Counted from the first letter of the stretch, positions 5,583 through 63,555 are shown. The stretch is 64,000 bases of DNA from Escherichia coli (GCF_017348835.2 NZ_CP071375.1); one strand, 5' to 3'. The notes: a model not told the origin generated them from the letters alone. A program made the numbers and translations.

Positions 5583-5661
5583 AACGTGTCCTGATGGCTA
5601 AAGTCAGATCTGTTCGCATTCTAACAGCCGAAATCAGGGGGGCAATGGTTTTTAGTGTGGG

Positions 5662-5695
5662 GAAAACGTTCGCACCAGAGCAGAACTCTGGTGCG
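5662..5695 (-). terminator. Rho-independent terminator at the 3' end of the yad fimbrial operon
   Basis: 10-bp perfect stem (5671-5680 and 5686-5695) with a 5-nt loop; on the minus strand it is followed by a T-tract. Confidence 0.5.
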
Positions 5696-5718
5696 ATGAG
5701 GAGGGAATAACGTTTTAC

Positions 5719-6840
5719 TTATTCGTAGGTAAAGGAGAAGGTCGCGTTACCGGAGAATGTTCCTGTTCCGATAGGTTTACCACTGCCATCGGGGACGAGT
5801 TGTGCTGTAAAAGGGAATGACAACAAGTTATTCGACCAGACAGGGAAGTTATAATCAATGGAAGCAACGCCATCTGGTTTTAATAACACTTTGCTATCAT
5901 TATAAGTTGAATTAACTCTTACAGCCACGCCTGTGGCAGAGCCAGTTGTTTTACCCACCAGATTTTTGTCAGTGGCTGCATTTGCAGCCGTCAGCTTAAC
6001 CGTAATCTTGCTGGCATAACAATACTCACCACGGATAGCAAAGGGAACTTCTCGGGTAAGACCATTTTTAACTTCGGATACGTAACTGTTACCTAACTGG
6101 ATTTCTGTGCCACTCACATTGCCTTTGTCCTGATCCAGGGTAATCATTGAACAGGTTGGTTGGTCAACGTAAAAGTGAACGGCACTATCCTGAACAGTAA
6201 AGTTTACCCATGCCTGGGTATTATCACCTATATACCAGGAAGCAATTTTTCCTGGCAAGGCATATCCTTCGAAAACCCCATTTTGAGGTTTAAATTCCGG
6301 CGTCCAGTAAAAACGAAAACGCAAATACCAGTCGTTGTCACTGTATTCATAAGCCCACTTGGTATCGCTGGCCGGTATGAAGTTATCTGCGCCGCTTTGT
6401 GCAGGTAAAACTAAATCAAGTTCATCTGCAGCACCACAGCTTATACATACCAATTCTACGGAGTAGACAATACCAGGAACTGTTGTTTTTAATAATGCGC
6501 CATTATCTTTCGAAACATAGGTTGATAACAAACCTGCATCCGCAGTGTTAAGAAAGTGTACTGAAGTAGTACCCCCTATATCGGACTTACATCCAATCGT
6601 CTCACCGTTCCTGTCCTTAAGTTTAATATTTGTATCATGAACCATGTCGCTTATTTCTTGTGGCGAAGATACCATTTGCGTTGTTATACTTTCAACCTCA
6701 GGGTTTATGACCATGTCATAAGTTCCCCCCGCCCATTTTTCTATATAACATTCCATCGCAGATGCAGACAAGGAGCACATAAAAAATAACAGTATTGCAC
6801 TGCATAACTGTCGTAACAGTTTATTGCCTTTCCTTTGCAT
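5719..6840 (-). CDS. yadC: Fimbrial tip adhesin-like protein (two-domain pilin)
   Basis: 373-aa ORF with a signal peptide; the C-terminal pilin domain ends ...GNATFSFTYE (conserved donor-strand acceptor terminus); last gene of the chaperone-usher operon. Confidence 0.85.
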   Translation of the reverse strand: MQRKGNKLLRQLCSAILLFFMCSLSASAMECYIEKWAGGTYDMVINPEVESITTQMVSSPQEISDMVHDTNIKLKDRNGETIGCKSDIGGTTSVHFLNTADAGLLSTYVSKDNGALLKTTVPGIVYSVELVCISCGAADELDLVLPAQSGADNFIPASDTKWAYEYSDNDWYLRFRFYWTPEFKPQNGVFEGYALPGKIASWYIGDNTQAWVNFTVQDSAVHFYVDQPTCSMITLDQDKGNVSGTEIQLGNSYVSEVKNGLTREVPFAIRGEYCYASKITVKLTAANAATDKNLVGKTTGSATGVAVRVNSTYNDSKVLLKPDGVASIDYNFPVWSNNLLSFPFTAQLVPDGSGKPIGTGTFSGNATFSFTYE

Positions 6841-6851
6841 AATTATCCTTA

Positions 6852-7442
6852 TTATTCGTAAGAAACATTAACAATAACCTGGCTTCTCACCATCCCCGAC
6901 TCGGGTGGGAGAGCATTATTCACCCGTTGCATACGGGAATAAAAGGTCCAGGTTGACGGAACAGCATTGCCTGGAGCGACAGAATAAATCGCCGTTGAGG
7001 AACCGTCCGTTCCCCGCACGTTAAAGGTCTGCTGATTCGGCTGTGCCGAAAATATTACAATGCCGACGTTTTTTGCCCCGGTAGCCTGCTGTTCATATTC
7101 ATTACTAAAAATTTGATTATTCACCTGCGCAAGCGAACCTGCCTGCGGCTGAAAATCTAATTTCATTTGCGACTGGGTCGTTTGAATATTATCGCAGGCG
7201 ACCACGTTAACATTAAACGTCTTGCCACCCGCATAATCCGTTGTTGGAGTTACGTTGTCGGCAAAATAGTCCAGGGTCACACTGCCGAGATCCACCACGC
7301 CATTATTACTCACTTCAACCTGACAGGTACTGGCGACAATCTGCGCGGTGAGATTCACATCCTGACCAGCATAGGCAAAAGGCGTTATGAGGGCTGTTGC
7401 CAGCCCCAAAAAACATACAAATTTATGATGCCTGCATAGCAT
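6852..7442 (-). CDS. yadK: Fimbrial subunit
   Basis: 196-aa ORF with a signal peptide and a pilin-like C-terminus (...VNVSYE). Confidence 0.85.
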   Translation of the reverse strand: MLCRHHKFVCFLGLATALITPFAYAGQDVNLTAQIVASTCQVEVSNNGVVDLGSVTLDYFADNVTPTTDYAGGKTFNVNVVACDNIQTTQSQMKLDFQPQAGSLAQVNNQIFSNEYEQQATGAKNVGIVIFSAQPNQQTFNVRGTDGSSTAIYSVAPGNAVPSTWTFYSRMQRVNNALPPESGMVRSQVIVNVSYE

Positions 7443-7462
7443 TCTAATATCCTTATCTGCTA

Positions 7463-8074
7463 TTACTGATAAGTGATAGTGAAGGTGGTGGGAGAAAGAA
7501 ACTCGCCCGGTAATACATCATTAACCGTTCTTCCATCGGCGATAATCATCCGCGCACTTAAATCGTAATCATAAGGCTGTGTTGTACTGGCATTAGAAAG
7601 ATCAACCGTGATGACGTTTCGTTGAACACAACTGAGTTGCTGACTGCCGCTTCCCTCGGGGGTCGTAGTCGTCCATACTTCGACCGCTGCTCTGCTTGAA
7701 CCACCAGCGCCGGAGGAAATTGAATTTGCAAAGCCGGCAGTGTTAGACTGACCGCCAGCGCAACCCGTACCAGGCCTGGGCGCTAAAACGAGTTGAGCAC
7801 TCTTCCCTGGAAGACCGGCACAATCACTGAAGCGGATTTTGAATGGTTGCACTTTGCTTTTTGCCGCTAACTCAGAAATATAAACATTGCCCAGGGCAAC
7901 AGTATCTGTCGCTTTATTGCTGGAATCCAGAACCTGAGCACTACAGGTACCCATAGTCAGGTTACTGTTTACGGTTAAAGATGCAGAAGTAGTACTCGCA
8001 TAGGCGAGATTTGAATTAAAGCTTGCACCTACGGCAACAGTAGCAATCAGTGTGGCGATGACTTTTAATTTCAT
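7463..8074 (-). CDS. yadL: Fimbrial subunit
   Basis: 203-aa ORF with signal peptide MKLKVIATLIATVAVGASFNSNLAYA and C-terminus ...TFTITYQ. Confidence 0.85.
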   Translation of the reverse strand: MKLKVIATLIATVAVGASFNSNLAYASTTSASLTVNSNLTMGTCSAQVLDSSNKATDTVALGNVYISELAAKSKVQPFKIRFSDCAGLPGKSAQLVLAPRPGTGCAGGQSNTAGFANSISSGAGGSSRAAVEVWTTTTPEGSGSQQLSCVQRNVITVDLSNASTTQPYDYDLSARMIIADGRTVNDVLPGEFLSPTTFTITYQ

Positions 8075-8088
8075 GGTGGCTGTCCCTG

Positions 8089-8652
8089 TTATTCGTAGGT
8101 GAAGTTAAAGGTGGCTTTTGCCTGAAACGCACCGGTGCGTCCCGCTCCCGCCGTGGTTTCGCGCAGTGCAACGGTCAGAGGCACACCGTTAGTTTTCTCA
8201 TCGGAAGACCATTCAAATTTGTCAGTATTATTGGGCGTGAAGAAAGCCGAGTCTGCGGCATCTCTACGCTTAATACCCATACCCACACCAGCAGCGCCAG
8301 AGCTTGCTTCATTGACAATCAACTTGCCTGAAACAGACGTTCCTGTAAGTGTGGTAAAAATTTTTGAGTAACCATCGCTGCAATCTTTAGCCTTTAATTT
8401 AAAGTTGGCTTGCGCTGCAACATCACCAGTGACAACTTTGTCCAGGCCAACATCAGGAATGGTCAGGCTGTATTCATCGTTACCGCTACTGGTCACCACG
8501 GGGCCACCATCTTGTTCAATGGTTATCGTACAGGTGGTGGCGAGTACAGTGGCCGTAAAATCGACTTTGAGATCTGTTGCAGAGCCAACTGCCGGTAAAC
8601 CCAGGCCTATTAACGCGGATGTTAGTAGTATCCTTTTCATAGAATTTTCCAT
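8089..8652 (-). CDS. yadM: Fimbrial subunit
   Basis: 187-aa ORF with a signal peptide and C-terminus ...KATFNFTYE. Confidence 0.85.
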   Translation of the reverse strand: MENSMKRILLTSALIGLGLPAVGSATDLKVDFTATVLATTCTITIEQDGGPVVTSSGNDEYSLTIPDVGLDKVVTGDVAAQANFKLKAKDCSDGYSKIFTTLTGTSVSGKLIVNEASSGAAGVGMGIKRRDAADSAFFTPNNTDKFEWSSDEKTNGVPLTVALRETTAGAGRTGAFQAKATFNFTYE

Positions 8653-8653
8653 A

Positions 8654-11254
8654 TTAATGTTTTGCTACCTGACAGGTAAGATTGTTAAGTAATAAGGTGT
8701 TAGTGCTTCCCAGAGTTTGTGGCTGGGCCGGGAACTGGTAATGCAACTTACAGTCCACGGTTTGGTTGTTTTCAAACCAGCGCACGGTTAATTCCCCACT
8801 GTCGTTAATACCACGCACAAATGCCTGACCGCCCTGGCCCATACTGCCGATCATGACTTCATCCTGGTAAACCTCCGCAGCAAACGGAATCGGTTTGTCA
8901 GTGTTGGAGGTAATATTCAGCACGGCAGAACGCCCTTCGTCAGTTTCAAAACGGGTCAAAACAACGGACCCGCTACGTGGTACGGTGGTGGCGCTGGTAC
9001 TTTTCAGTTCTACGTCGTTTTCCAGCGACTCAATGTTCAGGCCTACGCGGTTTTCACGGTATGGGCTGACAGCGGACGTTACGGCATATCCCCAGCGATC
9101 GATTTCGTTATTACTGTTATTGACTCGTGCGCCTTTAGCGCCTGGGGCATTGACTAACACCAGCGTATCGTTACTGCTGAAACTGTTATTGGTAAATGTC
9201 AGACCACCGCTGTGTAACACAAAGCCGCCATCGGTTGAGATGGAGTACTGTTGGCTATTATCAGAAGAGGCAGAGGCCGAAGCGGAAATACCGCCTAACC
9301 CAGATTCATAGTTGAGATAACCGCCAACAGAAGCTAGATCGCCGTAATTTTTATCCATGCTATAACCTGTGTTGACGCTATAGTTCACCTGGCCGCTTTC
9401 ATTGCTACCGGAACTGTTCATATTCAACTGGTGTGAACCATCAAAATCGGTATTGAGCTGAGTATTTAAATTACGGAAACCGGAAGTCTTGCGTTTGCCA
9501 CCGAAAATATTCTCAAAAGGCACGCTAACGCTGACATACATTGCGTCATCTTTATCGCCATCTTCATTCCAGCTACGTTGCAGGTTAACGCTGAAGCTAC
9601 CCCACGAAACGCTTTTACTGTAACCGACGTTATATTCAGTCCTGCTATTGTTCGCCGCCCAGTAGTCCGTCCAGCTACCGGAAATAAACAGCGAACCGTA
9701 ATCGACATAGGCGATGTTCAACGGTTGGTTGATGCTGACGGTAAACTGGTTTTTCATGCGTGAGTATGTCTGCATGGTGTTTTTGTCTTCATCGGCAGAC
9801 ATATGTTTCGCGTCGTCAATGAGGACTAACGCGTCATGCAGGCCCAGGTAATCCTGGGTGGAATAGCGGTAAGCCGCCAGGTTAAATGATGTTCCGGTAT
9901 CCTGGAAAAGTTTGTTCCAGGTTACGCGATAACTTTGCCCCTGGTAGGTTTTATCATCCGGAATTTCAGCGCGGGAATGGGTAACGTCCATCGCAAAAGC
10001 ACCGATGCTGGTGTTAATACCCACACCTAACAGTCCGGCAAGATAGTTGTTGTCGGTGAACTGAATGCCGGTGTAACCCGTGAAGAGGTTATTCAGACCA
10101 TAGTAATAAGAGGCTTGCCCCATATTAGGTTCGGATCGCAGGCTGTCATCAATAACTTTACCGGCACTGAAATCCCAACGACCCACGCCAGGACGCTGCA
10201 TCTGCACGACGGAGGAGAAGGGCTGCGTAAAGGAACGTTTGGAACCATCCGCTTCTTCAATGGTAATAACCAGTTCGCTACCAAATCCGGAAGGGCTGAT
10301 GTCATCAATAACAAACTCACCTGGCGGAACGGTGGTTTCATAGATTTTATAGCCGTTCTGCGTCACGGTAACTTTGGCGTTAGAGTTTGCCACACCACGA
10401 ATGGTCGGGGCGTAGCTGGCTAACGCAGAAGGCAGCATACGGCTGTCACTGTACAGGCGAACACCCCGGACGTTGACAGAGTCAAACGTTTCACCGGTGG
10501 TGTAGGCATCACCCATGATTATCTGTGAACGTATTGCCGGAATATCACGCTGTAGGTAACGATCCTGGAAATCGAAATCACTGCCGCTATCTGTTGTCCA
10601 GTTATAGTTGCCGCGCGCACGGAAATGCCAGGCACCTAAATTGATACCTGAGTTAAATGCGCCATAGACACTATCGTTATTGTTGTCTTCTGAACTTGTG
10701 TGATACGCGTTCAAGGAATACGACAGCGTGGCAGCGTTAATTCCCGACTCCCATAAGGAAGGATCAACGTAGCCGCCATAGCTCTTCAGGACATAGGCCT
10801 GAGGAATGGTCAGATCGAGATACTGGTCACTGCCATCAAATTGAACTTCGGCCTGATCGTATGACTTTGCCAGATCAAGACAGTCTTCTTCTTCACCTTC
10901 TCTGGCGAGTAGGGTCACAAGCTGTTCGGATTGTTTAATGTGTAACTGCGCCAGGTTTTTGCGGGTAATACAGGCCGCCGCGCTGTTTTCACCAATATCC
11001 ACAAACGGAATTTCTAAACTGGAGGTGGCCTGACCGTTTACAAACACGCGGACATTATAAAGACCCGGCGGTGTCGGGTTACCTTGAGCATAGCGTTTAA
11101 CATCAATGGTTGATGAGCCAGTTCCCATTAAGAAGGAACTGTCATATTCCACCGTGTCTGCCGCAGCACCGTTGCTGCTATAAAGGAGGGCGCAACAGGC
11201 CGCAAGTAGCGTTTTTTTCGGTGTACGACTTTTGTGATGAGTAAACTGGTACAA
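8654..11254 (-). CDS. htrE: Outer-membrane fimbrial usher
   Basis: 866-aa ORF; size and composition typical of PapC/FimD ushers; flanked by chaperone and pilin genes. Confidence 0.9.
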   Translation of the reverse strand: MYQFTHHKSRTPKKTLLAACCALLYSSNGAAADTVEYDSSFLMGTGSSTIDVKRYAQGNPTPPGLYNVRVFVNGQATSSLEIPFVDIGENSAAACITRKNLAQLHIKQSEQLVTLLAREGEEEDCLDLAKSYDQAEVQFDGSDQYLDLTIPQAYVLKSYGGYVDPSLWESGINAATLSYSLNAYHTSSEDNNNDSVYGAFNSGINLGAWHFRARGNYNWTTDSGSDFDFQDRYLQRDIPAIRSQIIMGDAYTTGETFDSVNVRGVRLYSDSRMLPSALASYAPTIRGVANSNAKVTVTQNGYKIYETTVPPGEFVIDDISPSGFGSELVITIEEADGSKRSFTQPFSSVVQMQRPGVGRWDFSAGKVIDDSLRSEPNMGQASYYYGLNNLFTGYTGIQFTDNNYLAGLLGVGINTSIGAFAMDVTHSRAEIPDDKTYQGQSYRVTWNKLFQDTGTSFNLAAYRYSTQDYLGLHDALVLIDDAKHMSADEDKNTMQTYSRMKNQFTVSINQPLNIAYVDYGSLFISGSWTDYWAANNSRTEYNVGYSKSVSWGSFSVNLQRSWNEDGDKDDAMYVSVSVPFENIFGGKRKTSGFRNLNTQLNTDFDGSHQLNMNSSGSNESGQVNYSVNTGYSMDKNYGDLASVGGYLNYESGLGGISASASASSDNSQQYSISTDGGFVLHSGGLTFTNNSFSSNDTLVLVNAPGAKGARVNNSNNEIDRWGYAVTSAVSPYRENRVGLNIESLENDVELKSTSATTVPRSGSVVLTRFETDEGRSAVLNITSNTDKPIPFAAEVYQDEVMIGSMGQGGQAFVRGINDSGELTVRWFENNQTVDCKLHYQFPAQPQTLGSTNTLLLNNLTCQVAKH

Positions 11255-11294
11255 GGTTGCATTCCTGGCGATGTTAAAAGAATCCGTTTATTTT

Positions 11295-12020
11295 TTAGAA
11301 TGTTGCTGAACCATCGATATTGCCGCCAAAGTCATTTATGGCCTGGAACACGACTTTGCCCGATGAAACGCCACCTGACAGACCCGTTACGCTAAAGCTT
11401 GCCTGACTGAACGGCGCGATCATGCTGGAATCGACTTTGTAGCTTTTGCCGCCGCTTTCCAGTTTGACGTCATTGAATGACACGTAATAAGGCGTTGGGT
11501 TATTCGCCTGCAATTGCGTGTTGTTCAACTTCCAGGTGATTTTTGCTGGCGCTTCAGCAGGTTCACCCTGCAAACCGCTCGGGCGATAAAAAAGTTTGAT
11601 GCGCGTGCGGAAAGCCAGTTGTAGTAAGTTTTTGTCAGCCTGGGCATCTTTCGGCTTTGGCGGCACTTCCAGCACGTTAAACCAGTAGACACTTTCCCGG
11701 TCTTTAGGTAGGGCTGTTGCACCGGTATACATTACTTTTACGGTTTGCCCGCGTTTTGGCTCCACGCGTGAAACGGGGGGCGTAGAGGTAAAGGGCACTT
11801 TGATCTGGCTGGGGTCGACATTGTCATTGCCGGTGTCCAACCAGTTCTGAATCAGTAAGGGGCGATTCCCTTTATTTTCCAGACGAACGTTAACATCTTT
11901 TTTATCAGCGTTATAAATGATACGAGTCCCGGAAATAATAATGTCAGCGAATGCTGGCGTACTGGCTAACAGAGTACTCACAAATAATGCACTAACCGTT
12001 TTTTTAACCAAGGGAAACAT
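11295..12020 (-). CDS. ecpD: Periplasmic fimbrial chaperone (PapD-like)
   Basis: ORF 11295-12095; the likely start is the internal Met giving MFPLVKKTVSALFVSTLLASTPAFA (signal peptide). The exact start is uncertain. Also known as yadV. Confidence 0.85.
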   Translation of the reverse strand: MFPLVKKTVSALFVSTLLASTPAFADIIISGTRIIYNADKKDVNVRLENKGNRPLLIQNWLDTGNDNVDPSQIKVPFTSTPPVSRVEPKRGQTVKVMYTGATALPKDRESVYWFNVLEVPPKPKDAQADKNLLQLAFRTRIKLFYRPSGLQGEPAEAPAKITWKLNNTQLQANNPTPYYVSFNDVKLESGGKSYKVDSSMIAPFSQASFSVTGLSGGVSSGKVVFQAINDFGGNIDGSATF

Positions 12021-12106
12021 AAGCACTCCTTGCTGTCTGTGTTGAGATAAAATTAGCGAAAATAAGGTTTGCCTGATGACAAACCCTATACTCAATTCGC
12101 CATCAA

Positions 12107-12700
12107 TTACTGATAAGTAATGGTGTACAGTGCGTTAGTGGTAACGTGACCAGCAGTAACAGCCTGGCTGTTCGGTGCTTTAACGTAAGATGCGTTAAAC
12201 ACATACTGACCGTTGCCTTGTGCGTCTAATGTCAATTCCTGGATTTCAGAAGAATTGTTCATATGGACCTGCTTAATTTCAGCAGCGCCAGCTTTGTTTT
12301 TCATGTTATGAACAGCAATGTTCACGTTCTGAGCCGGTTGAATACCGTTAATCGTGATATTGGTATTGTTGTTCAGGGTGCCGCTGGTGTTCGCGTAGCT
12401 TGCAGAACCCATGGTCAACTGGGCAGTTGTTTTACCCGGTTCGCAATCCACAGAAATCATGAACTCTTTCGGCAGTAAACCAACAGCAGCAGCGCTTACT
12501 TCAGCAAAGTTATCAGTAACATTTGCAGTATCCAGGGTAACCACGCCATCAGTGCTGATGCCGTGCATACCGGTATCTACCACACCCACTTTACAGGTAC
12601 CGGACTGTACCATACCGTTAAAGTCGATATGACCACCATCTACAGCCAGGGCGGAACCAGAAGCCATAACCAGAACGGCTGCGAGAAGTGCTTTTTTCAT
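12107..12700 (-). CDS. yadN: Major fimbrial subunit (pilin)
   Basis: ORF 12107-12709; the likely start is MKKALLAAVLVMASGSALA (signal peptide); C-terminus ...TNALYTITYQ; first gene of the operon. Confidence 0.85.
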   Translation of the reverse strand: MKKALLAAVLVMASGSALAVDGGHIDFNGMVQSGTCKVGVVDTGMHGISTDGVVTLDTANVTDNFAEVSAAAVGLLPKEFMISVDCEPGKTTAQLTMGSASYANTSGTLNNNTNITINGIQPAQNVNIAVHNMKNKAGAAEIKQVHMNNSSEIQELTLDAQGNGQYVFNASYVKAPNSQAVTAGHVTTNALYTITYQ

Positions 12701-12709
12701 TACATGCAT

Positions 12710-13042
12710 CCTTACAAAAATTATATGAAATTAATATTGCGAGCGGATATTACTCAAAGTTTTTGGAGGATGTAATAGGGGTGAGTTATCACGGATGTGA
12801 ATATATTTATGTGGTGTATTGAATTGTTGTTATTTTAGGTTGTTTAAACAAAAAATGCCTAATTTATTTGCATGAAGTGCTATTTCATGAATGAATTAAA
12901 AAAAACTAAAATGTAAATTAAGTATATTTAATATGTAAGGGGGGAAGTGAGGAGTAAGATAAGAAAATAATTTTTTCTTGGTGGATGAAATAGCCGTATC
13001 ATTTTGTATTCCTCTCGTCAAGAAAATAAAATAATACAGCTA
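12710..13042 (-). promoter_or_regulatory. AT-rich upstream control region of the yad fimbrial operon (probable H-NS-silenced promoter)
   Basis: 333-bp intergenic region with very high A+T content and long A/T runs, immediately upstream of yadN on the minus strand. Confidence 0.5.
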
Positions 13043-13522
13043 TTACCAGATGGCAGGTTGTGGTACTGCTAGCGAAGTGAGTATTTCACGTAATGTCTCC
13101 CCATCAGGAAACACGAGTTCCGGGGCAATCTCAAACAGCGGCCACAGCATAAAGCCGCGATTCTTCATATCATAATGCGGAACGGTGAGTCGTTCGGTAT
13201 TAATGGTTTCATTACCAAACAACATGATATCAAGATCGAGTGTGCGCGGTCCCCAGCGTTCAGCTTTACGGACGCGACCTTGCTGCAATTCAATACGCTG
13301 AGTGTGATTGAGTAACTCTTCAGGTGCAAGAGAGGTTTTCAGCGCCACGGCTGCGTTTAAGTAATCGGGTTGATCTTGCGGCCCCAGCGGTGGGGTGCGG
13401 TAAAACGAAGAAACGGCAAGAATGTGGCTTTCAGGGATATCGCCTAATGCTTTCAAGGCAGCATTGACCTGCTCCAGCGGAGAGGCCAGATTGCTGCCTA
13501 TGGCAATATACGCCACTGTCAT
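13043..13522 (-). CDS. folK: 2-amino-4-hydroxy-6-hydroxymethyldihydropteridine pyrophosphokinase
   Basis: 159-aa [37 protein letters not shown]... Confidence 0.95.
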
Positions 13523-52856: not shown

Positions 52857-55307
<2,451 letters not shown>

Positions 55308-55428
55308 GTGTTCTCCACAAAGGAATGTAGTGGTAGTGTAGCGATGACTTTAGGCGATCAATATAAGATCGCCGGGCCACGCAAAGAACTGCACCCTCCG
55401 GTGCAAATGGGATGGTAAGGAGTTTATT

Positions 55429-55914
55429 GTGAAAAAGTGGTTATTAGCTGCAGGTCTCGGTTTAGCACTGGCAACATCTGCTCAGGCGGCTGACAAAATT
55501 GCAATCGTCAACATGGGCAGCCTGTTCCAGCAGGTAGCGCAGAAAACCGGTGTTTCTAACACGCTGGAAAATGAGTTCAAAGGCCGTGCCAGCGAACTGC
55601 AGCGTATGGAAACCGATCTGCAGGCTAAAATGAAAAAGCTGCAGTCCATGAAAGCGGGCAGCGATCGCACTAAGCTGGAAAAAGACGTGATGGCTCAGCG
55701 CCAGACTTTTGCTCAGAAAGCGCAGGCTTTTGAGCAGGATCGCGCACGTCGTTCCAACGAAGAACGCGGCAAACTGGTTACTCGTATCCAGACTGCTGTG
55801 AAATCCGTTGCCAACAGCCAGGATATCGATCTGGTTGTTGATGCAAACGCCGTTGCTTACAACAGCAGCGATGTAAAAGACATCACTGCCGACGTACTGA
55901 AACAGGTTAAATAA
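55429..55914 (+). CDS. skp: Periplasmic chaperone Skp
   Basis: 161-aa ORF with signal peptide [20 protein letters not shown]. Confidence 0.95.
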
Positions 55915-55917
55915 GTA

Positions 55918-56943
55918 ATGCCTTCAATTCGACTGGCTGATTTAGCGCAGCAGTTGGATGCAGAACTACACGGTGATGGCGATATCGTCATCACCGGCGT
56001 TGCGTCCATGCAATCTGCACAAACAGGTCACATTACGTTCATGGTTAACCCAAAATACCGTGAGCATTTAGGCTTGTGCCAGGCATCCGCGGTTGTCATG
56101 ACCCAGGACGATCTTCCTTTCGCGAAAAGTGCCGCGCTGGTAGTGAAGAATCCCTACCTGACTTACGCGCGCATGGCGCAAATTTTAGATACCACGCCGC
56201 AGCCCGCGCAGAATATTGCACCCAGTGCAGTGATCGACGCGACGGCGAAGCTGGGTAACAACGTATCGATTGGCGCTAACGCGGTGATTGAGTCCGGCGT
56301 TGAACTGGGCGATAACGTGATTATCGGTGCCGGTTGCTTCGTAGGTAAAAACAGCAAAATCGGTGCAGGTTCGCGTCTCTGGGCGAATGTAACCATTTAC
56401 CATGAGATCCAGATCGGTCAGAATTGCCTGATCCAGTCCGGAACAGTGGTAGGCGCAGACGGCTTTGGTTATGCCAACGATCGTGGTAACTGGGTGAAGA
56501 TCCCACAGATTGGTCGCGTAATTATTGGCGATCGCGTGGAGATCGGTGCCTGCACTACCATCGATCGCGGCGCGCTGGATGACACGGTTATTGGCAATGG
56601 CGTGATCATTGATAACCAGTGCCAGATTGCACATAACGTCGTGATTGGCGACAATACGGCGGTTGCCGGTGGCGTCATTATGGCGGGCAGCCTGAAAATT
56701 GGTCGTTACTGCATGATCGGCGGAGCCAGCGTAATCAACGGGCATATGGAAATATGCGACAAAGTGACGGTTACGGGCATGGGTATGGTGATGCGTCCCA
56801 TCACTGAACCAGGCGTCTATTCCTCAGGCATTCCGCTGCAACCCAACAAAGTCTGGCGCAAAACCGCTGCACTGGTGATGAACATTGATGACATGAGCAA
56901 GCGTCTGAAATCGCTTGAGCGCAAGGTTAATCAACAAGACTAA
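55918..56943 (+). CDS. lpxD: UDP-3-O-(3-hydroxymyristoyl)glucosamine N-acyltransferase
   Basis: 341-aa ORF with a left-handed beta-helix hexapeptide-repeat region. Confidence 0.95.
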
Positions 56944-57047
56944 CGTTCCATCTTTTGTTCGCCAAACTTTACGGCCTGTCTCATTCTTACGATTGCGGCA
57001 GGCCGTGTTATTATTGTCGTTTCTTATATTTTGACAGGAAGAGTATC

Positions 57048-57503
57048 TTGACTACTAACACTCATACTCTGCAGATTGAAGAGATTTTAGAACTTCTGCC
57101 GCACCGTTTCCCGTTCTTACTGGTGGATCGCGTGCTGGATTTTGAAGAAGGTCGTTTTCTGCGCGCAGTAAAAAATGTCTCTGTCAATGAGCCATTCTTC
57201 CAGGGCCATTTCCCTGGAAAACCGATTTTCCCGGGTGTGCTGATTCTGGAAGCAATGGCACAGGCAACAGGTATTCTGGCGTTTAAAAGCGTAGGAAAAC
57301 TGGAACCGGGTGAGCTGTACTACTTCGCCGGTATTGACGAAGCGCGCTTCAAGCGCCCGGTCGTGCCTGGCGATCAAATGATCATGGAAGTCACTTTCGA
57401 AAAAACGCGCCGCGGCCTGACCCGTTTTAAAGGGGTTGCTCTGGTCGACGGTAAAGTAGTTTGCGAAGCAACGATGATGTGTGCTCGTAGCCGGGAGGCC
57501 TGA
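57048..57503 (+). CDS. fabZ: 3-hydroxyacyl-[ACP] dehydratase FabZ
   Basis: 151 aa from a TTG start ([29 protein letters not shown]...). The ORF track's 182-aa call from ATG 56955 is an over-extension. Confidence 0.9.
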
Positions 57504-57506
57504 TAC

Positions 57507-58295
57507 GTGATTGATAAATCCGCCTTTGTGCATCCAACCGCCATTGTGGAAGAGGGCGCGTCGATTGGCGCGAACGCACACATTGGTCCTTTTTGTATCG
57601 TTGGACCCCATGTCGAAATTGGTGAGGGTACCGTACTGAAATCTCACGTTGTCGTGAATGGTCATACTAAAATTGGCCGCGATAATGAGATTTATCAGTT
57701 CGCCTCCATCGGCGAAGTTAACCAGGATTTGAAATATGCTGGCGAACCGACCCGTGTGGAAATCGGCGATCGTAACCGCATTCGCGAAAGCGTCACCATT
57801 CATCGTGGCACAGTCCAGGGCGGTGGATTGACGAAGGTGGGCAGCGACAACTTACTGATGATCAACGCGCACATTGCGCACGATTGTACGGTAGGTAACC
57901 GCTGTATTCTCGCCAACAACGCAACGCTGGCGGGTCACGTATCGGTTGACGACTTCGCGATCATCGGCGGCATGACCGCAGTCCATCAGTTCTGCATCAT
58001 TGGTGCGCATGTGATGGTTGGCGGCTGCTCCGGTGTGGCGCAGGACGTCCCTCCTTATGTCATTGCGCAGGGTAACCACGCAACGCCGTTCGGTGTCAAT
58101 ATCGAAGGGCTGAAGCGCCGCGGATTCAGCCGTGAGGCGATTACCGCTATCCGCAATGCGTATAAGCTGATTTATCGTAGCGGTAAAACGCTCGATGAAG
58201 TGAAACCGGAAATTGCTGAACTGGCGGAAACATATCCGGAAGTGAAAGCCTTTACCGATTTCTTTGCACGCTCAACGCGCGGTCTGATTCGTTAA
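57507..58295 (+). CDS. lpxA: UDP-N-acetylglucosamine O-acyltransferase
   Basis: 262-aa [47 protein letters not shown]... Confidence 0.95.
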
Positions 58296-59443
58296 TGACT
58301 GAACAGCGTCCATTAACGATTGCCCTGGTCGCCGGAGAAACCTCCGGCGATATCCTGGGGGCCGGTTTAATCCGCGCTCTGAAAGAACGTGTGCCCAACG
58401 CCCGCTTTGTTGGTGTTGCCGGGCCACGAATGCAAGCTGAAGGCTGCGAAGCCTGGTACGAAATGGAAGAACTGGCGGTAATGGGCATTGTTGAAGTGCT
58501 CGGTCGTCTGCGTCGCTTACTGCATATTCGTGCCGATCTGACAAAGCGTTTTGGCGAACTGAAGCCAGATGTTTTTGTCGGTATTGATGCGCCTGACTTC
58601 AATATTACTCTTGAAGGTAACCTCAAAAAGCAGGGTATCAAAACCATTCATTACGTCAGTCCGTCCGTCTGGGCGTGGCGACAGAAACGCGTTTTCAAAA
58701 TAGGCAGAGCCACCGATCTGGTGCTCGCATTTCTGCCTTTCGAAAAAGCGTTTTATGACAAATACAACGTACCGTGCCGCTTTATCGGTCATACCATGGC
58801 TGATGCCATGCCATTAGATCCAGATAAAAATGGTGCCCGTGATGTGCTGGGGATCCCTTACGATGCCCACTGTCTGGCATTGTTGCCGGGCAGCCGTGGT
58901 GCAGAAGTCGAAATGCTTAGTGCCGATTTCCTGAAAACGGCCCAGCTTTTGCGCCAGACATATCCAGATCTCGAAATCGTGGTGCCGCTGGTGAATGCCA
59001 AACGCCGCGAGCAGTTTGAACGCATCAAAGCTGCAGTCGCGCCAGACCTGTCGGTTCATTTGCTGGATGGAATGGGCCGTGAGGCGATGGTTGCCAGCGA
59101 TGCGGCGCTACTGGCGTCGGGTACGGCAGCACTGGAGTGTATGCTGGCGAAATGCCCGATGGTGGTGGGGTATCGCATGAAGCCTTTCACTTTCTGGTTG
59201 GCGAAGCGTCTGGTGAAAACTGATTATGTCTCGCTGCCAAATCTGCTGGCGGGCAGAGAGTTAGTCAAAGAGTTATTGCAGGAAGAGTGTGAGCCGCAAA
59301 AACTGGCTGCGGCGCTGTTACCGCTGTTGGCGAACGGGAAAACCAGCCACGCGATGCACGATACCTTCCGTGAACTGCATCAGCAGATCCGCTGCAATGC
59401 CGATGAGCAGGCGGCACAAGCCGTTCTGGAGTTAGCACAATGA
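58295..59443 (+). CDS. lpxB: Lipid-A-disaccharide synthase
   Basis: 382-aa [34 protein letters not shown]...; overlaps the lpxA stop and rnhB start. Confidence 0.95.
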
Positions 59444-60036
59444 TCGAATTTGTCTATCCGCACACGCAGCTGGTTGCGGGTGTGGATGAAGCCGGACGCG
59501 GGCCGTTAGTTGGCGCGGTCGTCACCGCTGCGGTGATTCTCGACCCGGCGCGCCCGATTGCCGGGCTGAATGATTCCAAAAAGCTGAGCGAAAAACGTCG
59601 TCTGGCGCTCTGTGAAGAGATCAAAGAGAAAGCGTTGAGCTGGAGTCTGGGCCGCGCGGAACCTCACGAAATCGATGAACTGAATATTTTACATGCGACC
59701 ATGCTGGCGATGCAGCGTGCCGTTGCTGGGCTGCATATTGCGCCGGAATATGTGTTGATTGATGGTAACCGCTGCCCGAAATTACCGATGCCTTCGATGG
59801 CAGTGGTGAAAGGCGATAGCCGCGTACCGGAAATCAGTGCCGCGTCTATCCTGGCGAAAGTGACGCGTGACGCCGAAATGGCGGCGCTGGATATTGTTTT
59901 CCCGCAATATGGTTTTGCCCAACACAAAGGGTATCCAACCGCTTTTCATCTGGAAAAACTGGCTGAATATGGCGCGACTGAACATCATCGTCGCAGCTTT
60001 GGGCCTGTCAAACGAGCACTGGGACTTGCGTCCTGA
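59440..60036 (+). CDS. rnhB: Ribonuclease HII
   Basis: 198-aa [38 protein letters not shown]... Confidence 0.95.
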
Positions 60037-60072
60037 TTCTTGTGTCGAGATTAAGTAAACCGGAATCTGAAG

Positions 60073-63000
60073 ATGTCTGAACCACGTTTCGTACACCTGC
60101 GGGTGCACAGCGACTACTCGATGATCGATGGCCTGGCCAAAACCGCACCGCTGGTAAAAAAGGCGGCGGCGTTGGGTATGCCAGCACTGGCGATCACCGA
60201 TTTCACCAACCTTTGCGGTCTGGTGAAGTTCTACGGAGCGGGACATGGCGCAGGGATTAAGCCTATCGTCGGGGCAGATTTTAACGTCCAGTGCGACCTG
60301 CTGGGTGATGAGTTAACCCACCTGACGGTACTGGCGGCGAACAATACCGGCTATCAGAATCTGACGTTGCTGATCTCAAAAGCGTATCAGCGCGGGTACG
60401 GTGCCGCCGGGCCGATCATCGATCGCGACTGGCTTATCGAATTAAACGAAGGGTTGATCCTTCTTTCCGGCGGGCGCATGGGCGACGTCGGACGCAGTCT
60501 TTTGCGTGGCAACAGCGCGCTGGTAGATGAGTGTGTCGCGTTTTATGAAGAACACTTCCCGGATCGCTATTTTCTCGAGCTGATCCGCACCGGCAGGCCG
60601 GATGAAGAAAGCTATCTGCACGCGGCGGTGGAACTGGCGGAAGCGCGCGGTTTGCCCGTCGTGGCGACTAACGATGTGCGCTTTATCGACAGCAGCGACT
60701 TTGACGCACACGAAATCCGCGTCGCGATCCACGACGGCTTTACCCTCGACGATCCTAAACGCCCGCGTAACTATTCGCCGCAGCAATATATGCGTAGCGA
60801 AGAGGAGATGTGCGAGCTGTTTGCCGACATCCCCGAAGCCCTTGCCAACACCGTTGAGATCGCCAAACGTTGTAACGTAACTGTGCGTCTGGGTGAATAC
60901 TTCCTGCCGCAGTTCCCGACCGGGGACATGAGCACCGAAGATTATCTGGTCAAGCGTGCAAAAGAAGGCCTGGAAGAGCGTCTGGCCTTTTTATTCCCTG
61001 ATGAGGAAGAACGTCTTAAGCGCCGCCCGGAATATGACGAACGTCTGGAGACTGAACTTCAGGTTATCAACCAGATGGGCTTCCCGGGCTACTTCCTCAT
61101 CGTTATGGAATTTATCCAGTGGTCGAAAGATAACGGCGTACCGGTAGGGCCAGGCCGTGGCTCCGGTGCGGGTTCACTGGTGGCCTACGCGCTGAAAATC
61201 ACCGACCTCGATCCGCTGGAATTTGACCTGCTGTTCGAACGTTTCCTTAACCCGGAACGTGTCTCCATGCCTGACTTCGACGTTGACTTCTGTATGGAGA
61301 AACGCGACCAGGTTATCGAGCACGTAGCGGACATGTACGGTCGTGATGCGGTATCGCAGATTATCACCTTCGGTACGATGGCGGCGAAAGCGGTGATCCG
61401 CGACGTAGGCCGCGTGCTGGGGCATCCGTACGGCTTTGTCGACCGTATCTCGAAACTGATCCCGCCCGATCCGGGCATGACGCTGGCGAAAGCGTTTGAA
61501 GCCGAGCCGCAGCTGCCGGAAATCTACGAAGCGGATGAAGAAGTTAAGGCGCTGATCGACATGGCGCGCAAACTGGAAGGGGTCACCCGTAACGCCGGTA
61601 AGCACGCCGGTGGAGTGGTTATCGCGCCGACCAAAATTACCGATTTTGCGCCGCTTTATTGCGATGAAGAGGGCAAACATCCGGTCACCCAGTTTGATAA
61701 AAGCGACGTTGAATATGCCGGACTGGTGAAGTTCGACTTCCTTGGTTTACGTACGCTCACCATCATCAACTGGGCGCTGGAGATGATCAACAAGCGGCGG
61801 GCGAAGAATGGCGAGCCGCCGCTGGATATCGCCGCGATCCCGCTGGATGACAAGAAAAGCTTCGACATGCTGCAACGCTCGGAAACCACGGCGGTATTCC
61901 AGCTTGAATCGCGCGGCATGAAGGACCTGATCAAGCGTCTGCAACCTGACTGCTTCGAAGATATGATCGCACTGGTGGCACTGTTCCGCCCTGGTCCGTT
62001 GCAATCAGGGATGGTGGATAACTTTATCGACCGTAAACATGGTCGCGAAGAGATTTCCTACCCGGACGTGCAGTGGCAGCATGAAAGCCTGAAACCAGTA
62101 CTGGAGCCAACCTACGGCATTATCCTGTATCAGGAACAGGTCATGCAGATTGCGCAGGTGCTCTCTGGTTATACCCTCGGTGGCGCGGATATGCTGCGTC
62201 GTGCGATGGGTAAGAAAAAGCCGGAAGAGATGGCTAAGCAGCGTTCTGTATTTGCTGAAGGTGCAGAAAAGAACGGAATCAACGCCGAACTGGCGATGAA
62301 AATCTTCGACCTGGTGGAGAAATTCGCTGGTTACGGATTTAACAAATCGCACTCTGCGGCCTATGCTTTGGTGTCATATCAAACATTATGGCTGAAAGCG
62401 CACTATCCGGCAGAGTTTATGGCGGCGGTAATGACCGCCGATATGGACAACACCGAGAAGGTGGTGGGCCTGGTGGATGAGTGCTGGCGGATGGGGCTGA
62501 AAATCCTGCCACCAGATATAAACTCCGGTCTTTACCATTTCCACGTCAACGACGACGGCGAAATCGTGTATGGTATTGGCGCGATCAAAGGGGTCGGTGA
62601 AGGTCCGATTGAGGCGATCATCGAAGCCCGTAATAAAGGCGGCTACTTCCGCGAACTGTTTGATCTCTGCGCCCGAACCGACACCAAAAAGTTAAACCGG
62701 CGGGTGCTGGAAAAACTGATCATGTCCGGGGCGTTTGACCGTCTTGGGCCACACCGCGCGGCACTGATGAACTCGCTGGGTGATGCGTTAAAAGCGGCAG
62801 ATCAACACGCGAAAGCGGAAGCTATCGGTCAGGCCGATATGTTCGGCGTGCTGGCCGAAGAACCGGAACAAATTGAACAATCCTACGCCAGCTGCCAACC
62901 GTGGCCGGAGCAGGTGGTATTAGATGGGGAACGTGAAACGTTAGGCCTGTACCTGACCGGACACCCTATCAACCAGTATTTAAAAGAGATTGAGCGTTAT

Positions 63001-63555
63001 GTCGGAGGCGTAAGGCTGAAAGACATGCACCCGACAGAACGTGGTAAAGTCATCACGGCTGCGGGGCTCGTTGTTGCCGCGCGGGTTATGGTCACCAAGC
63101 GCGGCAATCGTATCGGTATCTGCACGCTGGATGACCGTTCCGGGCGGCTGGAAGTGATGTTGTTTACTGACGCCCTGGATAAATACCAGCAATTGCTGGA
63201 AAAAGACCGCATACTTATCGTCAGCGGACAGGTCAGCTTTGATGACTTCAGCGGTGGGCTTAAAATGACCGCTCGCGAAGTGATGGATATTGACGAAGCC
63301 CGGGAAAAATATGCTCGCGGGCTTGCTATCTCGCTGACGGACAGGCAAATTGATGACCAGCTTTTAAACCGACTCCGTCAGTCTCTGGAACCCCACCGCT
63401 CTGGGACAATTCCAGTACATCTCTACTATCAGAGGGCGGATGCACGCGCGCGGTTGCGTTTTGGCGCGACGTGGCGTGTCTCTCCGAGCGATCGTTTATT
63501 AAACGATCTCCGTGGCCTCATTGGTTCGGAGCAGGTGGAACTGGAGTTTGACTAA
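60073..63555 (+). CDS. dnaE: DNA polymerase III alpha subunit
   Basis: 1160-aa [47 protein letters not shown]... (PHP domain N-terminus). Confidence 0.97.

Follow-up and report, generated by a model that had tools for sequence, protein, structure and literature searches.

Neighbouring genes in bacterial operons are most commonly joined by overlaps of 1 nt and 4 nt, and the textbook examples of coupled junctions, trpE/trpD and trpB/trpA, are of the ATGA or TAATG type. The E. coli gene block analysed here resembles these pairs in that same-strand neighbours have a stop codon overlapping or abutting the next start codon; its lpxD-fabZ and rnhB-dnaE junctions are unlike them, and the resemblance of the block is one of sequence layout. 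For the start codon of fabZ a comparable case lies in the same chromosomal neighbourhood: cdsA, likewise essential and concerned with envelope lipids, also initiates at TTG, and its start was tested experimentally and shown to have back-up codons (PMC11448367), whereas the case of fabZ rests on sequence and annotation. The same work states that fabZ initiates at TTG, lists it among the TTG-started genes and proposes that TTG codons keep the expression of essential genes appropriately low (PMC11448367). The run of genes from skp to dnaE is reported to belong to the sigma-E regulon (PMC2731931). The operon, its gene overlaps and the TTG start are already known from curated annotation and the literature.

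The window, that is, the whole stretch of 64,000 nucleotides that was analysed, contains the E. coli genes skp-lpxD-fabZ-lpxA-lpxB-rnhB-dnaE, part of the sigma-E-regulated bamA operon. All genes discussed lie on the + strand, and all seven block proteins, taken whole, score above the NCBIfam equivalog cut-offs. The periplasmic chaperone gene skp (55429-55914; RefSeq) runs from GTG to TAA (NF008047, 295 bits, the cut-off being 237); the corresponding start codon is GTG in at least 72 of 81 loci. It is followed by lpxD (55918-56943), which has an ATG start and a TAA stop at 56941-56943 (TIGR01853, 436.6 against 242.5). Downstream of fabZ are lpxA (57507-58295; TIGR01852, 375 against 231), with a TAA stop and a GTG start kept in 80 of 81 loci, and lpxB (58295-59443; TIGR00215, 633 against 190), which runs from ATG to a TGA at 59441-59443. 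Both rnhB (59440-60036; NF000596, 346 against 251) and dnaE (60073-63555; NF004226, 1672 against 1002) start with ATG. The region shows 100% identity to PE164 and F2_81, strains whose RefSeq annotation places fabZ at the equivalent of 57048-57503, and is colinear with b0178-b0184 of K-12 MG1655. Gene order, all starts and stops, all spacers and overlaps and the entire spacer between lpxD and fabZ are the same as in K-12, from which the region differs by point substitutions only. These amount to 0.2-0.8% of nucleotides in skp, lpxD, fabZ and lpxA, and to 2.4-3.7% in lpxB and rnhB, with four amino acid changes in each of the latter two. FabZ, Skp, LpxA, BamA and DnaE are identical to their K-12 counterparts at the protein level, and LpxD differs by one amino acid.

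The junctions largely bear out the original prediction. The TAA of skp ends at 55914 and is separated from the lpxD ATG (55918) by the 3-nt spacer GTA (55915-55917); the TGA of fabZ ends at 57503 and the 3-nt spacer TAC (57504-57506) precedes the lpxA GTG (57507). As also predicted, lpxB and rnhB overlap by 4 nt, the letters ATGA at 59440-59443 containing both the rnhB ATG (59440) and the lpxB TGA (59441-59443). An ATGA overlap had further been claimed between lpxA and lpxB at 58295. The two genes do overlap, by 1 nt (TAA 58293-58295, ATG 58295-58297), but the junction is TAATG and not of the ATGA type: at 58295-58298 the lpxB start codon and the base after it spell ATGA, and the TGA within these letters is the second of two tandem in-frame lpxA stops (TAA then TGA, 58293-58298). 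The true ATGA overlap of the block is the one between lpxB and rnhB. The description of the whole block as tightly coupled holds, in terms of spacing, where a stop codon overlaps or lies within a few nucleotides of the next start, namely at skp/lpxD (+3), fabZ/lpxA (+3), lpxA/lpxB (-1) and lpxB/rnhB (-4), but fails at lpxD/fabZ (+104) and rnhB/dnaE (+36). The short spacers and overlaps group the genes into two compact modules, one of skp and lpxD and the other running from fabZ through lpxA and lpxB to rnhB; the 104-nt spacer parts them, and dnaE follows after the 36-nt spacer. A ribosome finishing one gene of a module would already be on or beside the start of the next, the usual layout where translation is coupled and expression ratios are fixed.

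The gene fabZ encodes the 3-hydroxyacyl-ACP dehydratase and extends from 57048 to 57503, with a start at the rare codon TTG and a TGA stop, in both the RefSeq (PGAP) and the K-12 (b0180) annotation. Reading this TTG as fMet would give a FabZ of 151 residues. The translation contains the hot-dog fold motif with the catalytic His and Glu, and it scores above the cut-offs of NF000582 (207.7 bits against 113) and TIGR01750 (199.7 against 155.15). In the 182-residue open frame that starts further upstream, in which TTG 57048 is residue 32, the FabZ profiles align to residues 39/40-177 and hence begin downstream of that codon. From TTG 57048 there are 17 residues, initiator Met included, before the motif LPHRFPF, and 48 from the upstream start; diverse FabZ representatives have short N-termini, with 8-24 residues before LPHR(Y/F)PFLL, and the N-terminus from TTG 57048 lies at the position typical of the family (a few to about 20 residues). 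The construct of E. coli FabZ in PDB entry 6n3p matches all 151 residues, beginning with MTTNTHTL.

Conservation at the nucleotide level also agrees with the predicted start. TTG occupies the homologous position in 81 of 81 Enterobacterales loci, as does the Shine-Dalgarno core AGGA (57036-57039, + strand), whose columns show no variation in 70 distinct sequences. The core lies within the block GACAGGAAGAGTAT(C/T) before TTG, which is essentially invariant, with one A-to-C change in one locus, and its duplex with the 16S 3′ end has an energy of -4.3 kcal/mol at 7-nt spacing; the AGGA is 7-8 nt before the start codon. The survey covered these 81 loci and four extra families reached through the encoding contigs. 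A search of representatives at 50% identity gave distant FabZ proteins, with all gammaproteobacterial relatives merged into one cluster, and for this reason the survey was confined to Enterobacterales. The TTG start was also found in Pectobacterium, Limnobaculum and the endosymbiont Baumannia; Photorhabdus has ATG, so TTG is not universal within the order. The TetRP and ribosome-signature supplementary tables were checked for fabZ initiation and do not list fabZ. We infer that the weak TTG start may have been retained to fix the level at which FabZ is produced.

The spacer between lpxD and fabZ (56944-57047, + strand) is not conserved as protein; it carries a conserved RNA hairpin at 56972-57005 (+ strand) of the form CGGCCTG-loop-CAGGCCG, followed by UGUUAUUAUUG at 57006-57016, which together resemble an intrinsic terminator or attenuator. 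The predicted minimum free energy is -19.7 kcal/mol here and averages -22.4 kcal/mol (range -20 to -30) over 70 distinct Enterobacterales sequences. The 7-bp base of the stem is invariant. RNAalifold on a MAFFT alignment recovered this invariant base alone, because loop lengths vary, and folding of each sequence separately revealed an upper stem. RNAalifold also predicts a 5-bp helix between the Shine-Dalgarno sequence and the TTG, the columns of which are invariant and hence offer no covariation evidence. The tail has 7 U in 11 bases and its U tract is interrupted; a simple terminator scan flagged just a 5-bp sub-stem at 56994-57007, and Rfam covariance models gave no match in the window between 55200 and 60300 at E values up to 1. 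An RNA 3′ end has been mapped by Term-seq at K-12 202063/202064, where it is left unclassified, in three growth conditions (PMC7815308 supplement). The 61-mer given for it is identical to 56960-57020 of the window and therefore places the 3′ end at 57010/57011, 5 nt past the stem, a position that would be compatible with termination or exonuclease trimming alike. With its G+C-rich stem, U-rich tail and 3′ end in vivo the element is like intra-operon intrinsic terminators and attenuators or hairpins that protect 3′ ends. It differs from usual terminators in the interruption of its U tract and in the greater conservation, order-wide, of the sequence of its stem base and tail.

Taken as one explanation, the identity of the block, a 151-residue FabZ initiated at TTG 57048 and the two compact modules have in our estimate a probability of about 0.93. 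As regards the modules, the short spacers and overlaps could instead reflect genome compaction alone, each gene being initiated independently from its own Shine-Dalgarno sequence with no functional coupling. This would agree with the ordinary nature of 1-nt and 4-nt overlaps and with the presence of a Shine-Dalgarno sequence at lpxA (GGGAGG, within the 3′ end of fabZ; -10.3 kcal/mol, a strong pairing), skp (-8.7 kcal/mol) and rnhB (-5.9 kcal/mol). We consider it unlikely, as pairing is weak at lpxD (-3.2 kcal/mol) and lpxB (-2.4 kcal/mol), which fits reliance on the upstream ribosome, and the exact spacing is kept over at least three families, the gap of 3 nt being found in 76 (skp-lpxD) and 80 (fabZ-lpxA) of 81 Enterobacterales species loci. 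The 4-nt overlap of lpxB and rnhB is found in 58 of the 81. Judged by these comparisons, the junction architecture is conserved beyond chance, yet ordinary for operons. The junctions may couple translation, for which the conserved spacing and the weak pairing at lpxD and lpxB give indirect support. As regards the start of FabZ, the protein might wholly or partly be an N-terminally extended isoform of 182 residues. The longest open frame had been said to begin at an upstream ATG; it begins at a second TTG (56955), and no in-frame ATG or GTG occurs between the upstream stop and 57048. The frame does add exactly the 31 codons that had been counted (56955-57047). It is open from an in-frame TTG, GTG or ATG in E. 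coli, E. albertii and some Citrobacter, in which trace upstream initiation is compatible with the sequence; TTG 56955 lies just 11 nt past the lpxD stop, so that re-initiation is conceivable, and extended FabZ models are numerous in the databases. All the same, an extended isoform is highly improbable. TTG 56955 has no Shine-Dalgarno sequence (-0.7 kcal/mol), the family profiles do not cover the extension, the short form is the one used by curated annotations and by the crystallised construct, and the extension would have to cross the stable conserved hairpin, with the mapped RNA 3′ end (57010) inside it. Conservation of the extension among orthologues, which would have contradicted its description as non-conserved, was looked for and did not materialise: in 56 of 80 other species the fabZ TTG is preceded by no in-frame ATG, GTG or TTG at all, 18 species carry an in-frame stop six codons before it, and in 44 of 83 loci the frame is interrupted by a stop codon on the way from the hairpin to the TTG. 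Moreover, with respect to the TTG the conserved DNA block of the spacer occurs in each of the three frames (60, 17 and 6 loci). It is thus strongly supported that the 31-codon 'extension' is untranslated leader RNA, and in E. coli these codons would remain open merely by chance.

The conserved element of the spacer could also be explained at the level of DNA, as mainly a promoter region for fabZ-lpxAB served by sigma-70 or sigma-E, with the hairpin being incidental. Genomic SELEX detected binding of the sigma-70, sigma-E (intensity 30.9), sigma-H and sigma-F holoenzymes in the spacer, at K-12 202068 (PMC3946193, PMC5493296). A consensus scan found no sigma-70 promoter on the + strand of the lpxD-fabZ spacer, and the main text of the paper on the sigma-E regulon names no promoter inside it. 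A -35/-10 pair for sigma-E chosen by eye (e.g. AAACTT-N15-TCTTA) was inconsistent across species and was dropped. What speaks for RNA is the pattern of variation, in that the upper stems of different genera diverge in sequence but can still pair, and the G-U pairs fit the + strand alone; the 3′ end mapped just past the stem in all three conditions also argues against an incidental hairpin. We therefore regard a predominantly promoter function as improbable, although promoter and hairpin roles could coexist.

The TTG start of fabZ is of use for checking automated start calls, as had been proposed. It is already the start chosen by NCBI PGAP and in the curated K-12 record. Public protein sets include many over-extended FabZ models of 171-208 amino acids, and one such cluster has 2370 members. 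A rule that takes the longest open reading frame over-extends fabZ by 31 codons, which makes the gene a practical test case. It also illustrates that partial 'conservation' of an extension can reflect a conserved Shine-Dalgarno sequence and a conserved RNA hairpin read in frame and not coding constraint.

The biological weight of the operon and of the TTG start is small; these findings are correct but ordinary. The sole noteworthy item is the uncharacterised hairpin, on account of its order-wide conservation, the RNA 3′ end and its location at a metabolically sensitive point of the operon. A tentative proposal, which we hold to be possible but rather doubtful, is that the fabZ leader is a dedicated module for setting expression across Enterobacterales, in which the hairpin acts as a regulated attenuator or as an element bound by a protein or an sRNA and is not a passive stabiliser of the 3′ end. 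The parts of such a module would be the terminator-like hairpin with its invariant base, the A/U-rich tract, the invariant Shine-Dalgarno block and the near-invariant weak TTG. If this proposal is true, the leader fixes or regulates the amount of FabZ, LpxA and LpxB relative to LpxD, a ratio that determines what share of (R)-3-hydroxymyristoyl-ACP goes into phospholipid synthesis and what share into lipid A synthesis.

The run studied lies on one strand, and from the ORF list and the raw sequence it comprises bamA (52875-55307), skp (55429-55914, GTG start), lpxD (55918-56943, ATG), fabZ (57048-57503, TTG), lpxA (57507-58295, GTG), lpxB (58295-59443, ATG), rnhB (59440-60036, ATG) and dnaE (60073-63555, ATG). 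Published work already assigns it to the sigma-E regulon as a unit (PMC2731931; PMC1312014), and all seven proteins of the block from skp to dnaE exceed the NCBIfam equivalog cut-offs. By megablast, 55400-60100 has a single match each in 5,423 of 5,426 complete E. coli genomes, strains PE164 and F2_81 matching at 100%; identity of at least 99% over this interval is reached in only 23 of the 5423. In RefSeq, both PE164 and K-12 MG1655 (b0177-b0184) are annotated with these genes in matching relative positions, and fabZ starts at the equivalent of 57048. In a base-by-base comparison with K-12 all start codons, stop codons, spacers and overlaps are identical, as is the entire 104-nt lpxD-fabZ spacer. 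The skp, lpxD, fabZ and lpxA genes differ from K-12 by 0.2-0.8%, whereas lpxB and rnhB have diverged by 2.4% and 3.7%, with four amino-acid changes each; to judge from the sequence, 58295-60036 looks like a recombination patch. Elsewhere in the window, the yad fimbrial operon region (5596-13082) has no megablast match to K-12 and is hence highly divergent, and where K-12 has about 840 bp that span yaeI, the window has about 128 nt (39907-40034).

The original prediction that fabZ is initiated at TTG 57048 agrees with RefSeq. In all 81 loci compared, from the window and from 80 other Enterobacterales species (Enterobacteriaceae, Erwiniaceae, Yersiniaceae), the codon aligned to this position is TTG. 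The 15 nt preceding it are nearly invariant, GACAGGAAGAGTAT(T/C), and an AGGA Shine-Dalgarno sequence (-4.3 kcal/mol) lies 7 nt from the codon. The longer ORF does add 31 codons (56955-57047), but its start codon is TTG 56955 and not the ATG that had been supposed; this codon lacks a Shine-Dalgarno sequence (-0.7 kcal/mol), and no other ATG, GTG or TTG is found in frame between the upstream stop and 57048. The NCBIfam FabZ profiles begin at residues 39-40 of the 182-aa ORF, 7-8 residues past TTG 57048, short N-termini are likewise present in distant FabZ proteins, and the construct with which E. coli FabZ was crystallised (6n3p) begins with MTTNTHTL. A 2024 paper on cdsA names fabZ among genes with a TTG initiation codon (PMC11448367), and the same codon is used in Pectobacterium, Limnobaculum and Baumannia, the last with a reduced genome. 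The proposed start is thus supported at the level of sequence. In Photorhabdus, looked up separately from the 81 loci (L083:383-403), fabZ has an ATG directly behind an in-frame TAG; this site almost coincides with the TTG position of other Enterobacterales, and the hairpin and Shine-Dalgarno block are kept upstream. RNAalifold also predicts an invariant 5-bp helix, without covariation, between the Shine-Dalgarno CAGGA and U(C/U)UUG, the latter including the start codon (57035-57050, + strand).

Conservation of the 31 added residues among FabZ orthologues would speak for the longer protein, and in the 80 other species it was not found. In 56 of them the frame that leads up to the fabZ TTG contains neither ATG nor GTG nor a further TTG, and 18 species carry an in-frame stop six codons before it. 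Some upstream start is present in 24 species, where the resulting extensions (6-44 residues) are unrelated in sequence except for a terminal DRKSI, which is the Shine-Dalgarno block in translation. The conserved spacer motif GGCCGTGTT keeps no fixed frame with respect to the TTG, each of the three being represented (60, 17 and 6 loci), and in 44 of 83 loci an in-frame stop interrupts the stretch from the hairpin to the TTG. The partial likeness of over-extended database models (e.g. AGRVV) therefore arises because one conserved DNA block is read in three frames. Many such models, 157-208 aa long, are found in public collections (entries P0001-P0020), for instance a cluster of 2370 members at 171 aa and an entry from Yersinia at 196 aa; they are start-calling errors at the fabZ locus. 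The proposed use of this locus as a check on start calling is sound but ordinary.

The junctions are close, but the block is not uniformly tight as had been claimed, since gaps of 104 nt and 36 nt separate lpxD from fabZ and rnhB from dnaE. The predicted 3-nt spacers of skp/lpxD (GTA) and fabZ/lpxA (TAC) are present, and are kept in 76 and 80 of the 81 loci, respectively. The lpxA/lpxB overlap at 58295 is indeed one base (TAA 58293-58295, ATG 58295-58297), but of the TAATG type rather than ATGA; TGA 58296-58298 is a second in-frame stop, so that lpxA ends in tandem stops (58293-58298) straddled by the lpxB ATG (TAATGA). The true ATGA overlap of the block is the predicted four-base lpxB/rnhB junction (59440-59443), found in 58 of 81 loci; lpxA and lpxB overlap by 1 nt or abut directly in 69. 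Shine-Dalgarno pairing is weak at lpxD (-3.2 kcal/mol) and lpxB (-2.4 kcal/mol) and stronger at lpxA, skp and rnhB, strengths that fit translational coupling, which would operate in two modules, one made up of skp and lpxD, the other running from fabZ through lpxA and lpxB to rnhB. Three genes have non-ATG starts (skp GTG 55429, fabZ TTG 57048, lpxA GTG 57507), each kept in 72 to 81 of the 81 loci; for the lpxA GTG the count is 80. The original observation is real save for two errors of detail, and its central content is already known from curated annotation and the literature.

The lpxD-fabZ spacer, from which the 31 added codons are read, holds a hairpin that is conserved across Enterobacterales (56972-57005, with a tail to 57016, + strand), formed by CGGCCTG, a 20-nt interior and CAGGCCG, followed by UGUUAUUAUUG. 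Among 70 distinct sequences its 7-bp base is invariant except for a change of U-A to U-G at one pair, a variant that can pair only in + strand RNA. The interior varies by genus with its self-complementarity kept (GCTATC/GATAGC, GCGATC/GATCGC, GGATC/GATCC, CGAGT/ACTCG), a pattern by which the upper stem is judged compensatory. Whole-hairpin energies in the 70 sequences range from -20 to -30 kcal/mol (mean -22.4), and in 51 of them the interior is more stable than shuffled versions of itself at z < -1. Pectobacterium, Limnobaculum and Photorhabdus likewise carry the element, and Baumannia has it in degraded form; it has no match in Rfam, and no description or role of it was found in the searchable literature. 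In each of the three growth conditions covered by published Term-seq (PMC7815308, supplementary file 1), an RNA 3' end classed as "orphan" is listed at K-12 202063 or 202064 (+). The 61-mer given for it matches window 56960-57020 letter for letter, which places the end at 57010/57011, 5-6 nt past the stem. Within 55353-55385 (+ strand), the bamA-skp spacer has another hairpin, GGCGATC-AATATAA-GATCGCC, with a Term-seq orphan 3' end (K-12 200438, window 55385) 12 nt downstream of it. Genomic SELEX has detected binding of sigma-70, sigma-E (intensity 30.9), sigma-H and sigma-F holoenzymes in the lpxD-fabZ spacer (PMC3946193, PMC5493296), and an internal promoter may lie near the hairpin. Most economically, the lpxD-fabZ hairpin is read as a weak terminator inside the operon, or as a structure that protects 3' ends, after lpxD, and this hairpin is the only feature of the block that goes beyond existing annotation.
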